Below, piece after piece: positions 2,743 through 51,312 of a DNA stretch of 64,000 bases (its first letter is position 1; every line of letters starts with the position of its first letter). The DNA is from Eubacteriales bacterium (GTDB lineage Bacteria > Bacillota > Clostridia > Oscillospirales > CAG-272), in contig JAZQMI010000119.1 of assembly GCA_045543375.1 (NCBI GenBank), forward strand, positions 5,236-69,235, read 5' to 3'. The notes under the pieces are model-generated. The model was not told the DNA's origin and searched no databases. It was given only the letters and a program-made list of their open reading frames with translations. Made by a program: the position numbers and the translations under genes.

Positions 2743-2764
2743 ACACTCACATCAAAACCGCATA

Positions 2765-2850
2765 AAAACGGGGGTGCTGAGCAATCGGCTGAGATGAGGC
2801 GCAAGCCTTGAACCCTTAACCTGATACGGATAATGCCGGCGTAGGGAGAT
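2765..2850 (+). promoter_or_regulatory. TPP (THI-box) riboswitch aptamer
   Basis: Contains GGGGTGC...GGCTGAGA...ACCCTTAACCTGATACGGATAATGCCGGCGTAGGGAG, which matches the conserved CUGAGA and ACCUGAUCUGGAUAAUGCCAGCGUAGGGA cores. It lies upstream of a thiamine transporter gene. Confidence 0.9.
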
Positions 2851-2901
2851 TTTTTAGTGCATTGCTTGCCATGGAAAGCAGAACACAGAACAAAAATGCT
2901 A

Positions 2902-20401: not shown

Positions 20402-20409
20402 GATAAAAA

Positions 20410-20580
20410 ATGATAGAGGCGCGCGTGACAAGACTACCTCCTGTGCCAAGCTTTCGCAAAGTGTTGCAGGTGGAAAAGGGGATCGCGCCGAAGGGAGCTT
20501 GGGCGAAAAGTTACCCTGGTAACTCGGACAACATCCGTTTTACTGTCGCACATTGCGGAGAGCTATCGAACAAACTTCCG
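20410..20580 (+). promoter_or_regulatory. lysine riboswitch (L-box)
   Basis: The 5' AGAGGCGC, the central GAAAAGGGGATCGCGCCGAAGG and the 3' ACTGTCGCA...GGAGAGCTA blocks match conserved L-box elements. It sits upstream of dapA-dapB-lysA. The expression platform was not resolved confidently. Confidence 0.85.
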
Positions 20581-27786: not shown

Positions 27787-27863
27787 TGGTGGGCCATCAG
27801 GGACTCGAACCCCGGACCAACCGGTTATGAGCCGGTAGCTCTGACCAACTGAGCTAATGGCCC
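27787..27863 (-). tRNA. tRNA with CAT anticodon; elongator Met or, more likely, lysidine-type tRNA-Ile2
   Basis: The reverse complement folds as a 77-nt cloverleaf with encoded CCA. The acceptor stem is GGGCCAT/ATGGCCC, the D arm GCTC-AGTTGGTCA-GAGC and the anticodon stem-loop ACCGG-CTCATAA-CCGGT. The variable loop is TGGTC and the T arm CGGGG-TTCGAGT-CCCTG. C4-G69 and C5-G68 plus the TGGTC variable loop resemble Ile2(CAU). Confidence 0.93.
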
Positions 27864-41867: not shown

Positions 41868-43211
41868 CTATATATCGCCTTCGACTGCAATTCCGAGCTC
41901 GCGCAGACAGTCAAAGAAATTTGGAAAGCTTTTGCGCACGGCGTGTGCGTCTGTGATACATCCGTCGCCGACCATGCTGCACAAAACGGCCAAACTCATG
42001 ACGATACGATGATCGTTATGACCGCACAGTTCTTCTGTCGGCGCATGAATTGCTTGCCGGGCATCTCCCGGTAAAATCATGACCCAGCCTCCACACGACG
42101 TACCGTCGCCCAGCGCCGCCAATTCGGCGATATCCGTTTTGTATACGGTTGCGTCATCAGAGGTCACGACAACGGCGCCGAATTTACGCAATTCTGTGGC
42201 CATAGCCGCAATACGATCACTTTCCTTCAGCCGCAGACGTGCAGTATGCGTAAATATGGCACCACGACATAATGTCGCAGCAGCAAATAGAATGGGACCA
42301 AGATCAGGACAATCTTCCAAGGGAAAAATTGGTAATTCCCCGCTGTTTTTTACCATTTTCTGTAAAAAATCAGTGCTTATGCTGTCGCCTTGAATAATGT
42401 CGCTTTTGGGAGGATTACACACCTTGACAGATGCTCCTAACGCCCGCATCGCATAGAAAAAGGCGGCGCCGGAGGCATCTCCGTCTACACACATATCGAC
42501 CGAGTGATAGACTTGATTTCCCGGAATTTTTATGCAGCGTTCATTTTCCCAAAATGCTTTGACGCCAAAGCGTTTCATCACCGCCATCGTCATATCAATA
42601 TACGATCTGCTTTCCGGTGCTTGTCGCATCTCGATTGTACTGTCACCCGCAAGAAGCGGCAGCACAAAGAGCAGTCCTGTGACAAACTGACTGCTGATTT
42701 TTCCGGACAGGCGAAACGTTCCTGCCAAAAGAATGCATCCGCCACCGATTTCCAGTGATGTTTCGCTTTTTGAAAGCGAACGGTTGGCAAACAGCTCGTC
42801 ATAATCGGACAGCGGGCGTTCAAACAATCGAGCACTTCCCTGCAAACGGATGCTGTTTGGCGAAAGGAGGCAAAGCGGCAGCATAAAACGAAGTGTACTG
42901 CCACTCTCTCGACAAAGAAGTGTAGTTCCCTCTTGATCCCATTGTCCATGGCAGCCCTTGACAGACACTTGTCGGCAACGCTCGTCCGACGGGTCTTTTT
43001 TTATTTCAAAAGAAACGCCCAGTGCGCTAAGACAATCCAACGTCGCATCGATATCCTCATTGTATGGGACACCCGATATCACGCTTGTCGTGCCGTTGTC
43101 GGCTAATGCGGCGCAAATCAATGCGCGGTGTGCAATGCTTTTGGACGTGGGAACGTAAACGGAACCGCAAGGCTGGCTCTTGCGAACCGTTACGGTATCA
43201 TGACGTGTCAT
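41868..43211 (-). CDS. aroA: 3-phosphoshikimate 1-carboxyvinyltransferase (EPSP synthase)
   Basis: 447 aa with PTSKSIAHRALI near the N-terminus and a later HNDHRIVMSLAV block. It is the last gene of the aro operon. Confidence 0.92.
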   Translation of the reverse strand: MTRHDTVTVRKSQPCGSVYVPTSKSIAHRALICAALADNGTTSVISGVPYNEDIDATLDCLSALGVSFEIKKDPSDERCRQVSVKGCHGQWDQEGTTLLCRESGSTLRFMLPLCLLSPNSIRLQGSARLFERPLSDYDELFANRSLSKSETSLEIGGGCILLAGTFRLSGKISSQFVTGLLFVLPLLAGDSTIEMRQAPESRSYIDMTMAVMKRFGVKAFWENERCIKIPGNQVYHSVDMCVDGDASGAAFFYAMRALGASVKVCNPPKSDIIQGDSISTDFLQKMVKNSGELPIFPLEDCPDLGPILFAAATLCRGAIFTHTARLRLKESDRIAAMATELRKFGAVVVTSDDATVYKTDIAELAALGDGTSCGGWVMILPGDARQAIHAPTEELCGHNDHRIVMSLAVLCSMVGDGCITDAHAVRKSFPNFFDCLRELGIAVEGDI

Positions 43212-49358: not shown

Positions 49359-50276
49359 TTATTGTTTATCGAATCCGATACGGCGCTGTGTCGAGGTACG
49401 CATCATGGTGCGCATACGCTCGGCATCGCCACTTGCCAATGCGTTACGCATGGCGCCAAATCGCTCGGCGAACAGATCCATTTGTTCGAGCAGCGCGTCG
49501 CGATTGGACAGAAAAAGTTCCGTCCACATGGTGTCGTTAATTTTCGCAATTCGTGTCAGATCACGGAAGGAATCTCCCGTCAGCCTTGCCAAACGAGCGA
49601 GGTCGGTATGGGAATCTTGCTCTCTTCCCTCTCCTGCGCAACACATCAGCGATACCGCGATGGCGTGTGTCAACTGCGATAAGTAAGCAATCATTCGGTC
49701 GTGCTCTTCGATCGAGAGTCGTGTGATACGACCGAAGCCCAACAGACGACCGAGCTGCTCACACACAAGAATAGCTTCAGACGTATTTTTCAAGGTGGGA
49801 ACGACCAGATAATTGGCATCTCGGAACATATCGGGTGTGGCGGCGCGGTAAACATCAAGCGCGCCATTGCCCATGAGTTCCTTTCCCGCCATCGGGTGCG
49901 CCGAAATAAACTCAACGCCCGGTGGAAGTAAGTTTTGCACCTCATCGACCACGCAGCCCTTGACACCCGTAACATCGGTCAACAAAGTGCCCTCGTGTAT
50001 CAAATGACCGTTTTGCTTGATCCATTCAACCATAACGGCGGGATACAAGCCAAATATAATAATGTCAGCTTGCCCGATCAATTGCGCATTGACCTGCGTG
50101 TCGCCCTCGGCAATTGTACCGTCAGCCAATGCTGCGTCGACAACCTCTCGCGAAAGCGTAATGCCCAACACGCGATACCCCTTTTGCGCGAGCGCTTTAG
50201 CATAGGCGGTGCCTATCAGGCCCATGCCTACGATCAGAACTGTACAATCGGGGATCAGCTTTGGAAATCGTTTCAT
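49359..50276 (-). CDS. tyrA: prephenate dehydrogenase
   Basis: IVGMGLIGTAYA Rossmann motif and a HPMAG block. Start at ATG 50276 with AAAGGAGAG upstream. It is the first gene of the aro operon. Confidence 0.9.
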   Translation of the reverse strand: MKRFPKLIPDCTVLIVGMGLIGTAYAKALAQKGYRVLGITLSREVVDAALADGTIAEGDTQVNAQLIGQADIIIFGLYPAVMVEWIKQNGHLIHEGTLLTDVTGVKGCVVDEVQNLLPPGVEFISAHPMAGKELMGNGALDVYRAATPDMFRDANYLVVPTLKNTSEAILVCEQLGRLLGFGRITRLSIEEHDRMIAYLSQLTHAIAVSLMCCAGEGREQDSHTDLARLARLTGDSFRDLTRIAKINDTMWTELFLSNRDALLEQMDLFAERFGAMRNALASGDAERMRTMMRTSTQRRIGFDKQ

Positions 50277-50299
50277 TTTCAACTCTCCTTTGACATAAA

Positions 50300-50337
50300 T
50301 ATCAAAAGAGCGGTTTTGCACGTGCAAAACCGCTCCT
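50300..50337 (-). terminator. intrinsic terminator (candidate attenuator) in the aro operon leader
   Basis: Perfect palindromic stem GAGCGGTTTTGCAC/GTGCAAAACCGCTC (50308-50335) followed on the minus strand by TTTTGATATTT. Its stem ends about 19 nt before the tyrA ribosome-binding site. Confidence 0.85.
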
Positions 50338-50369
50338 TATCATCTTCTCTTGATGTGGAATGCAAACAC

Positions 50370-50597
50370 TTATGCGCTCATTGCTGCATAAGAAGTTTTT
50401 GTTTTGCGCGGCATATAAAATTGGTTCAAATAAAATCGATAGGTGCAATACGAATAATAGGCATACGCAAAAAAGGACACTGCATAGGCAGTATCCGCAT
50501 AGTTATCATTGGTGCTGACAATTCCGGCAACGCGCGCAGACAAAGCCGACGAATCCGTCGGTTCTACGTTCAGCATACGGCTAGCATTGCTTTGCAT
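50370..50597 (-). CDS. 75-codon Tyr/Phe-rich upstream ORF (candidate leader peptide for attenuation control)
   Basis: Internal ATG 50597 of the track ORF 50370..50771, preceded by GAAAGGTG. The peptide is MQSNASRMLNVEPTDSSALSARVAGIVSTNDNYADTAYAVSFFAYAYYSYCTYRFYLNQFYMPRKTKTSYAAMSA, with 10 Tyr, 4 Phe and no Trp. Confidence 0.5.
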   Translation of the reverse strand: MQSNASRMLNVEPTDSSALSARVAGIVSTNDNYADTAYAVSFFAYAYYSYCTYRFYLNQFYMPRKTKTSYAAMSA

Positions 50598-50633
50598 AAC
50601 GGTCAAACACCTTTCTTGTGAAACTATGAAAAT

Positions 50634-50662
50634 AGTATACACGATTTCTTTCGTTTTTTCAA
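50634..50662 (-). promoter_or_regulatory. promoter (TTGAAA-17-TATACT) for the leader ORF and aro operon
   Basis: On the minus strand TTGAAA is at 50662-50657 and TATACT at 50639-50634, with a 17-nt spacer. Confidence 0.65.
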
Positions 50663-50889
50663 TAGTAATATACACCAAAATAGCAAGAACGAAATGTAAT
50701 ATTTTGTTGTTTTTCACTATTTTCTTGACGCAGTAAATTTTGCACGTGTTTGAATTGGTCAAAATATCCAATTTTCCATTTCAAAAGCAAGCAAAAGTAC
50801 CAAACTTATCTTAGCTTTGGCAAATCCCCTTTTCAAATGATGAAATTTATGCTACAATAATAGCAATGAAAGAAAAGGAGGCTATTCCC

Positions 50890-51312
50890 ATGGCTATCAA
50901 AATGCGCGTGCTTTACGCGACCAGCAAAAAGAAAATGATCAATATTGCAAATTACATCAAGCAGAAATACGAGCTCACCCAGAATTCTGTGGACTGTGTT
51001 CCCCCTGCTTATTCCTGCGACAAAGAGCGCATCGTTGTTTTGGCATGCGCCGGTAAGAACGACGTTGAAGATGCTCTGCGCCGTTTCTGCATCGAGCTGA
51101 CCAAGGATCGCGCTGCCAACGTAGCGCTCCTGATCGACGGTACGCCGACGTATGCCGACAATATCAAGGCAATTTTGAAGAACGCCGGTACCAACGTGCT
51201 TGAGGACGTGATGTACATCAAGTGCGGTCTGTTCGGCTCGGCTGTCAAGCCCGAAGAACAGGCGGCAATCGTTGATTGGCTGGATAACAAGGTCATTTGC
51301 AATTTGAAGTAA
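50890..51312 (+). CDS. hypothetical protein (flavodoxin-like fold suspected only)
   Basis: ATG 50890 preceded by AAAGGAGG; about 140 aa. No family was confidently recognised. Confidence 0.6.
   Translation: MAIKMRVLYATSKKKMINIANYIKQKYELTQNSVDCVPPAYSCDKERIVVLACAGKNDVEDALRRFCIELTKDRAANVALLIDGTPTYADNIKAILKNAGTNVLEDVMYIKCGLFGSAVKPEEQAAIVDWLDNKVICNLK

Follow-up and report, generated by a model that had tools for sequence, protein, structure and literature searches.

How does a bacterium of the Clostridia decide when to transcribe a complete operon for tyrosine and phenylalanine synthesis? Firmicutes normally regulate their aromatic amino-acid operons by T-boxes or TRAP, and leader-peptide attenuation is rare among them, being thought disfavoured since RNA polymerase outruns ribosomes. 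The question is raised by a 64,000-nucleotide (nt) stretch from an Eubacteriales bacterium (contig JAZQMI010000119.1 of assembly GCA_045543375.1; hereafter the window, whose numbering is used throughout), where a leader open reading frame (ORF) rich in Tyr and Phe codons lies between a promoter and tyrA. We consider it probable, at roughly 75%, that this leader is a ribosome-mediated transcription attenuator sensing charged tRNA-Phe and tRNA-Tyr. This reading is favoured because insertions and deletions (indels) preserve the frame, Phe/Tyr codons are enriched in that frame specifically, the terminator covaries, a segment inside the ORF covaries with it, and Rfam detects neither a T-box nor a known leader.

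A leader ORF between promoter and operon

The elements that frame the leader are the following.

50662–50634, minus strand: sigma-70-type promoter, TTGAAA-17-TATACT (−35 at 50662–50657, −10 at 50639–50634)
50615–50608, minus strand: Shine–Dalgarno (SD)-like sequence GAAAGGTG of the leader ORF, about 12 nt ahead of its ATG
50597–50370, minus strand: leader ORF, ATG start, 75 codons plus TAA
50474–50415, minus strand: sensor run FFAYAYYSYCTYRFYLNQFY, residues 42–61, with 11 Phe/Tyr codons in 20, all UUU or UAU
50276–49359, minus strand: tyrA (prephenate dehydrogenase), first gene of the operon, ATG at 50276

A preliminary description of this locus, made from the letters alone, had already placed the promoter, the ribosome-binding site and the 75-codon ORF at these positions. 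The promoter matches the consensus at 10 of 12 positions with a 17-nt spacer. The ORF encodes the peptide MQSNASRMLNVEPTDSSALSARVAGIVSTNDNYADTAYAVSFFAYAYYSYCTYRFYLNQFYMPRKTKTSYAAMSA, whose composition (10 Tyr, 4 Phe, no Trp) is again as first described. Downstream, tyrA has its own SD (AAGGAG, 50290–50285) and opens an operon of the order tyrA-aroG-pheA-aroB-aroC-aroE/K-aroQ-aroA, extending to aroA at 41868. Pfam annotates the products as prephenate dehydrogenase, DAHP synthase, CM-PDT, DHQ synthase, chorismate synthase, a shikimate DH/kinase fusion, DHQase II and EPSP synthase; tyrA and pheA are thus present and trp genes are not, in agreement with the earlier statement that the operon makes Tyr and Phe and carries no trp genes.

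For this region Rfam returned no T-box, riboswitch or curated leader (Phe_leader, Leu-phe leader and others), whether the window was searched at the gathering threshold or 50200–50950 at E ≤ 10, which upholds the earlier remark that no T-box is visible here. The leader contains no AGGGUGGNACCGCG-like T-box sequence and no specifier loop, and low-score Rfam matches (mir-19, for example) were set aside as chance matches to the palindromic terminator. A search with nhmmer found the leader only once in the 64-kb window and not at all in distant tyrA loci.

Frame conservation in a diverging peptide

Used as the sole query, the 75-residue peptide retrieved just one near-identical match, and a profile search was needed to find more; relatives were reached outward through tyrA homologues and exact-protein look-ups. 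Homologous loci are labelled here with L-numbers and proteins with P-numbers. Gut and rumen metagenomes contain homologous leaders in about nine uncultured lineages of Clostridia, with tyrA identities of 72–100%: L010, with ~97% nucleotide identity to the window; L019/L020 and L021 (tyrA 85–86%); L022/L023 (81%); L024–L028 (79%); L029 (77%); and two further leader-bearing groups, the clade of L031–L036 plus L041 and the group L037/L038/L039. The tyrA-anchored scans of genome and metagenome contigs yielded mostly distant loci (Erysipelotrichaceae and others), without the leader.

In every leader-bearing lineage the ATG and the SD are conserved, L029, L031 and L037 having stronger GGAGG motifs at the position equivalent to the window SD. 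The ORF measures 70–112 codons and spans the same conserved blocks; it always ends at or just past segment 2 (defined below), and a strong terminator always follows before the first biosynthetic gene. In alignment A1, which covers the closer lineages, the five indel runs within the ORF (18, 3, 3, 12 and 3) all have lengths divisible by three, compared with 2 of 12 outside it (hypergeometric p ~0.003). The distance from the ATG to the hairpin H2 (below) takes seven values (95, 98, 101, 116, 119, 122 and 125 nt), all in one common frame. Leader peptide identity is only 34–44% where that of tyrA is 77–81%, revealing fast evolution of the peptide. Judged by these patterns, the leader ORF is under selection to remain open and in frame, and the combination of in-frame indels and spacings with rapid peptide divergence argues that it is translation itself and certain codons that are kept, not a protein fold.

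Phe and Tyr codons concentrated in the translated frame

The 11 aromatic codons of residues 42–61 (a count that the preliminary description had right) exceed those in all shuffles (2000/2000), and the other two frames of the same stretch hold 3 and 3. This pattern extends to all tyrA-adjacent leaders, whose run between the Phe-Phe pair and segment 2 contains 9–16 Phe plus Tyr in 18–32 codons, with 2–6 in the other frames; composition-matched shuffles of these runs average 4–8 (p ≤ 0.012, mostly 0/2000). Ile, Leu and Val are depleted in frame within the run (1–2), and Trp codons are absent across 11 sequenced leaders. Codon choice is also skewed: all 14 Phe/Tyr codons of the window leader end in U (UUU/UAU), against 61% in the operon's own genes. 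The counts indicate that the Phe/Tyr codons are selected in frame. Comparative alignment, raised in the preliminary description as a way of checking its proposal, comes out in its favour: the aromatic run is conserved, specifically in the ORF frame, in a peptide that otherwise diverges, and the terminator covaries.

A covarying terminator and a candidate antiterminator

Four elements make up the proposed switch.

50338–50305, minus strand: intrinsic terminator (segments 3 and 4), 13 bp with an ACGU loop, dG −22.2 kcal/mol
50304–50295, minus strand: U-rich tail of the terminator, UUUUGAUAUU
50472–50465, minus strand: segment 1, UUUUGCGU, paired with segment 2 GCGCAAAA in the full-length minimum free energy (MFE) fold
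50411–50390, minus strand: segment 2, CCGCGCAAAAC...CUUCUU, inside the ORF on Pro-Arg-Lys-Thr codons (Pro-Arg/Cys-Lys)

The terminator begins about 33 nt past the stop codon, and its tail sequence is UUUUGAUAUUUAU. It had been described as a perfect 14-bp stem; the arms do form a perfect inverted repeat, but physically they fold as 13 bp closed by the ACGU tetraloop. Over 13 sequences the helix is 98% paired, and in four pairs both bases have changed (for example, GGGUGGUUUUGC/GCAAAGCCACCC in L029). By this compensatory pattern the terminator, like H2 below, is a real RNA helix.

The sequences of the two upstream segments are as first reported (UUUUUUGCG at 50474–50466 and CGCGCAAAAC at 50410–50401). 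Segment 2 copies part of the terminator 3′ arm and can form a helix with the terminator 5′ arm plus loop; in 10 of 11 lineages, folding the leader without segment 4 gives an MFE structure that joins the terminator 5′ arm/loop to the homologous segment 2, and L024 uses an adjacent GCAAGG copy as its segment 2, matching its own altered terminator. Across clades the in-ORF segment CGYGCAAAA tracks the terminator 5′ arm and loop, segment 2 and terminator top/loop reading CGYGCA/UGCACG in the window clade, CAUGCA/UGCAUG in L029, CCCAUGCA/UGCAUGGG in L037/L038 and CAAUUGCA/UGCAAUUG in L031/L041. In a mini-alignment of this 2:3 pairing, 78.8% of cells pair, compared with 23–42% in slid registers; three columns have both partners changed (G-C, A-U, U-A), terminator loop positions included, and the covariation score of 0.221 compares with 0.102 for shuffled data (0/500). 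Segment 2 and the terminator 5′ arm and loop co-vary on these measures, which marks segment 2 as a candidate antiterminator strand. The alternative 1:2 pairing is part of the window's full-length MFE and comprises 7–10 pairs in the window clade.

One pair of loci differs within this region. L024:2542–3003 and L025:1073–1534 have an identical tyrA protein (P0007) and identical leader flanks, and their 3′ third (segment 2 through H3) is markedly different, which suggests recombination or rapid turnover of the antiterminator region.

Hairpins inside the ORF

Besides the terminator, the leader contains the following structures, of which H1 and H2 are further conserved hairpins absent from the preliminary description.

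50561–50546, minus strand: H1, CCGACG-GAUU-CGUCGG, in the ORF, with a conserved U-rich tail CUUUGUCUG at 50545–50537
50496–50475, minus strand: H2, GGAUACUGC-CUAU-GCAGUGUCC, in the ORF, 9 bp, GC-rich, dG −13.1 kcal/mol
50474–50469, minus strand: U6 tract directly 3′ of H2, encoding the invariant Phe-Phe (UUU UUU) that starts the aromatic run
50392–50369, minus strand: H3, CUUAUGC...GCAUAAG, spanning the stop codon and lying in the antiterminator loop

H2 is 100% paired in 13 sequences and includes two compensatory pairs, both in L029, where the peptide shifts from AVS to VAS; because the pairing is kept while the peptide changes, H2 is evidently an RNA-level element. The tract behind it reads TTTTTT throughout the Phe/Tyr-type leaders and GTTTTT in L037/L038. 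In sequence shape alone, H2 plus U6 resembles an intrinsic terminator or a hairpin with a TTNTTT pause signal (motif from PMC9226507), and most likely it makes the polymerase pause, or stop conditionally, so that the ribosome can draw level ahead of the sensor codons. H1 is conserved in sequence, yet no compensatory pairs were seen in alignment A3; with its U-rich tail it is a possible pause element.

Other pairings were tried and rejected. An anti-SD role for the UUUGUCU tail of H1, acting on the leader SD, fits L029 (ACUUUCC/GGAAAGU) and fails in other lineages, and pairing of the H1 tail CGGUUUUG, which resembles the terminator 5′ arm, with segment 4 shows no consistent covariation. A long-range AUGCA:UGCGU pairing at the start codon, suggested by RNAalifold, is weak.

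How attenuation would proceed

If the leader is an attenuator of this kind, transcription would begin at the conserved promoter and the 75-codon ORF would be translated. H2 with U6, and perhaps H1 with its U-rich tail, would hold the polymerase until the ribosome arrives, bringing the two into synchrony immediately ahead of the sensor codons. Under a shortage of Phe or Tyr, the ribosome would stall in the 20-codon run (50474–50415), which is placed between segments 1 and 2 and fills exactly the ~60 nt separating them. A ribosome stalled there would keep segments 1 and 2 apart, leaving segment 2 free to capture the terminator 5′ arm and loop on their emergence; the 2:3 pairing would then block the 13-bp terminator and allow RNA polymerase to enter tyrA-aroG-pheA-aroBC-aroE/K-aroQ-aroA. 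With Phe and Tyr both plentiful, the ribosome would cross segment 2 to the stop codon, segment 2 would be masked or re-paired with segment 1, the terminator would form and transcription would end at ~50300. The stop codon of L031 and L037 lies right against segment 2, so there a terminating ribosome could mask segment 2 directly. We infer the stalling, the order of folding, the pausing at H2 and H1 and the regulatory output.

Several findings weigh against this reading. The window 2:3 duplex (−13.6 kcal/mol) is no more stable than the dinucleotide-shuffle expectation (z = −0.14), and in most lineages it is no better than shuffles, only L021 (z = −3.8), L022 and L019 standing out; the energy test being non-significant, the case for the antiterminator rests on positional and covariation evidence. 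The covariation test is itself biased, since complementarity was used to place segment 2 in the L031/L041 clade, and independent compensatory events in 2:3 are few (~2–3). The 1:2 pairing shows no covariation and comprises only ~5 pairs in the L031 and L037 clades. In the window clade the core of segment 2 lies 29–39 nt upstream of the stop codon, beyond the cover of a ribosome at the stop, so the model needs either the 1:2 pairing or tight timing. The U-tails behind the terminator are poor in L029 and L037. The conserved N-terminal module of ~40 codons and the length of 70–112 codons are neither needed nor explained by the classical model. In B. subtilis, moreover, transcription and translation are reported to be uncoupled, with polymerase outrunning the ribosomes; if the same applies here, strong pausing would be needed, which we again infer. 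Of the 1:2/2:3/3:4 layout first put forward for this leader, then, the covarying terminator and the covariation of segment 2 with its 5′ arm and loop stand, whereas the 1:2 pairing lacks covariation and the window 2:3 energy is at chance.

A lineage with Ile/Leu/Val codons and a wider family

L037, L038 and L039 share promoter, 5′ module, H2, segment 2 and terminator with the other leaders, but their leader stands ahead of a LivK-type binding protein and livHMGF, with tyrA following 15 nt after livF. Their run contains 18–21 Ile/Leu/Val in 52 codons and 8–9 Phe/Tyr in 52, the latter equal to the other frames. Loss of the aromatic run with retention of the terminator, which the preliminary description had counted as evidence against its proposal, therefore does exist in these three loci; but here the run is Ile/Leu/Val-rich and the first gene is LivK-type, and since the run changed along with the first gene, the case fits codon-specified sensing and is not a refutation. 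The swap supports such sensing, with the genomic context known for only one lineage of this 'VF' type. In the full contig of the nearest species-level metagenome-assembled genome the leader sits 5 kb upstream, ahead of an inserted liv operon. The place of the ORF between promoter and operon is kept even where neighbouring genes differ.

Two observations concern the same loci. A complete LivK-H-M-G-F type ABC transporter lies between leader and tyrA (L039:2895–9518, also in L037 and L038), whose substrate could be branched-chain or aromatic amino acids, and a third hairpin with a U-run, AAAGAGUGAUCGCACUCUUUUC, stands between the main terminator and livK.

A profile search of 1.8 billion representatives returned about 30 clusters with the same N-terminal motifs. 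These comprise an 'FF' type (~25 members), with Phe/Tyr-rich tails of 24–46 residues, and a 'VF' type (~9 members), with Ile/Leu/Val-rich tails of 50–69 residues that include hydrophobic spans of 25–35 residues resembling transmembrane helices; the VF-type peptides are possibly membrane micro-proteins. A tentative extension of our reading, which we hold at well under even odds, is that the window leader belongs to a modular family of long-leader attenuators in uncultured Clostridia. Its 5′ module of ~40 codons, with two in-ORF hairpin-plus-U-tract elements, might serve as a pause or conditional-termination checkpoint that forces ribosome–polymerase synchrony, and its codon run might be exchangeable (Phe/Tyr before tyrA-aro, Ile/Leu/Val before a liv-type transporter). 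The U6 of the second module hairpin also supplies the two codons that open the sensor run. Bolder still is the idea that the conserved N-terminal peptide QPTxxSVLSVC...DTAxAVSFFA might itself modulate elongation from within the exit tunnel.

One member departs from this arrangement: P0128 (99 residues, from a European Nucleotide Archive (ENA) contig of 758 nt) has the normal peptide as far as AVSFF and then the unrelated sequence FILPFISTLGH..., which might reflect a frameshift at the U-tract, a chimeric assembly or true variation.

Alternative explanations

Three other explanations were weighed, all of them disfavoured mainly because of the frame-preserving indels, the frame-specific selection of Phe/Tyr codons and the fixed geometry of ORF, segment 2 and terminator. 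The ORF could encode a functional small protein co-transcribed with the aro operon, its aromatic or hydrophobic C-terminus serving the protein's own function (membrane association, for example) and the terminator being merely leaky and operon-internal or insulating. The N-terminal motifs QPTxxS[AV]LS[AV]C and D[AT]AxA[VA]S[FV]FA, which persist in the ~30 cluster representatives, would suit such a protein, as would the S-V-L-S block that L029 retains through three synonymous codon changes and the transmembrane-like spans of the nine VF members. Yet the peptide has no Pfam or NCBIfam match and is only ~35% identical where tyrA is ~80%, most of its conserved residues coincide with covarying RNA helices (H2 keeps its pairing as AVS becomes VAS), and both the geometry ahead of the first biosynthetic gene and the position between promoter and operon are fixed despite differing neighbours. 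The small aromatic-rich membrane peptide offered as an alternative in the preliminary description finds no support among the tyrA-linked leaders: their peptides lack any hydrophobic span, Arg, Asn, Gln and Lys break up the aromatic run, and the sequence evolves fast outside the RNA elements. We regard a functional small protein as unlikely.

Control of the terminator by a trans-acting factor (a TRAP-, PyrR- or LicT-like protein, uncharged tRNA or a small ligand) bound to the conserved 5′ leader RNA (H1, H2 and single-stranded blocks), with the ORF incidental or aiding RNA stability, would account for strongly conserved sequence blocks in the 5′ 130 nt, which go beyond what the classical model requires, and for a whole leader that folds more stably than shuffles (z = −3.6); a conserved 140-residue protein is also divergently encoded beside the leader in most lineages. 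Frame-preserving indels and frame-specific Phe/Tyr codons are, however, unexpected of an RNA bound purely by protein or ligand, the L031 clade keeps the leader without the 140-residue gene, and the leader has neither an Rfam family match, T-box included, nor TRAP-like repeats of (G/U)AG binding motifs, so that this explanation is, to our mind, scarcely probable. Still harder to credit is H2 plus U6 as the main terminator, releasing a small or dual-function RNA of ~160 nt, with the downstream terminator as a backup and the aro operon expressed by read-through or from another promoter. The covarying, GC-rich 9-bp H2, a U6 that is invariant in the Phe/Tyr-type leaders and the unusually conserved promoter speak for it; against it, the ORF runs 30–60 codons in frame beyond H2 in all lineages, with selected Phe/Tyr codons, no other promoter-like site lies between H2 and tyrA on the minus strand, and the tract reads GUUUUU in L037/L038. 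We therefore retain ribosome-mediated attenuation as the preferred reading.

Neighbouring genes and sequences

The promoter spacer/−10 stretch AAATCGTGTATACT (50634–50650, minus strand) is invariant in 13 of 13 aligned leaders, the most distant clades included; this conservation exceeds the apparent need of promoter function alone, and the stretch contains the palindrome GTATAC. Upstream of the promoter, in the intergenic region at ~50700–50850, the blocks GTTTGAAAAG, AAGTTTGGTGCTTTTGC and AAATTGGATAnTTTGACCAA are conserved across lineages (alignment A1); they may be the promoter/operator of the divergent gene beyond, or a DNA-level control site for the leader promoter.

That divergent gene, the 140-residue ORF at 50890–51312 (plus strand), adjoins the leader in the window, L010, L019–L026, L029 and L037/L039 and is absent from the L031 clade. 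Its product has no Pfam, NCBIfam or PDB match; a single-sequence AlphaFold model (predicted local distance difference test, pLDDT, of 45) has a beta-alpha-beta pattern and is too poor to use. A gene for an ECF-type sigma factor (Sigma70_r2/r4) adjoins it at L022:1196–1753, L023, L037:121–516 and L039:1942–2337. In the L031 clade a predicted membrane protein of 144 residues, with no Pfam match, is inserted between aroG and pheA (L031:6656–7090, plus strand); it was compared with the 140-residue protein as a possible relative and found to be unrelated. Elsewhere in the window, Rfam matches at gathering score comprise a lysine riboswitch (20406–20573, plus strand), a TPP riboswitch (2760–2864, plus strand) and a tRNA (27790–27863, minus strand).

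Relation to known attenuators

The closest functional parallels are the E. coli pheL-pheA leader (Rfam Phe_leader) and the classical trp, his, leu and ilv attenuators of Proteobacteria, which likewise place a leader ORF rich in end-product codons between promoter and intrinsic terminator and share the logic of 1:2, 2:3 and 3:4 pairings on common strands, a ribosome stalled at hungry codons selecting the antiterminator (as would happen here). There is no similarity to them in sequence or by covariance model. The present ORFs run to 70–112 codons, compared with 14–32 in classical leaders, and the window leader would respond to both Phe and Tyr on behalf of an operon that unites tyrA, pheA and the shikimate genes. 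Its sensor run lies between segments 1 and 2 and not inside segment 1, it is preceded by a conserved 40-codon module with two in-ORF hairpins, and its hosts are Clostridia.

For a hairpin within a translated region, E. coli pyrBI is a precedent: its 44-codon leader ORF runs through a single attenuator governed by UTP-dependent polymerase pausing, and the rph-pyrE attenuator is a related case. These systems resemble the window leader in having a long ORF with a terminator-like hairpin and U-tract inside the translated region, suppressible by a close ribosome, and U-rich pause sites upstream. pyrBI differs in relying on UTP-dependent pausing where codon-specific stalling is proposed here, and in the window leader H2 is followed by the sensor run and then by another terminator, stronger than the first, that comes with a candidate antiterminator. 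Another comparison is offered by B. subtilis vmlR and tlrB, with stalling of a ribosome on an upstream ORF (uORF) countering an intrinsic terminator and with a pause hairpin plus a NusG-dependent TTNTTT motif (PMC9226507); H2 with TTTTTT matches that pause-hairpin shape, and pausing at H2 would follow by analogy. Stalling there is induced by antibiotic on a very short uORF, in contrast to the presumed response to amino-acid supply on a long ORF here.

Within the Firmicutes, leader-peptide attenuators of the same mechanism class that stand in place of the usual T-box include the Leu-rich attenuator peptide of S. aureus ilv-leu (PMC5794164), predicted His leaders in the B. cereus group, Peptostreptococcaceae and Erysipelotrichales (PMC9413887, PMC2965389), and the Lactococcus Leu/Phe leader in Rfam. 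All of these differ from the window leader in amino-acid specificity (Phe/Tyr here) and in operon, are short and unrelated in sequence, and have neither the N-terminal module nor the in-ORF hairpin with its U-tract. T-box riboswitches with Phe, Tyr or Trp specifiers and TRAP perform the same task, converting aromatic amino-acid or tRNA-charging status into a choice between terminator and antiterminator; the window leader has no T-box match at E ≤ 10 and no TRAP-type triplet repeats, and its sensing would proceed through the translating ribosome.

If this reading is correct, the leader would represent the first Phe/Tyr-sensing leader-peptide attenuator family described for Clostridia, controlling a complete tyrA-pheA-shikimate operon in abundant, uncultured bacteria of gut and rumen. 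The long ORF, the in-ORF hairpins with their U-tracts and the apparent sensor swap would make it a natural system for ribosome-dependent attenuation without constitutive coupling of transcription and translation. More broadly, many of the 'hypothetical proteins' of 70–110 residues encoded upstream of metagenomic biosynthetic operons are probably regulatory leaders.

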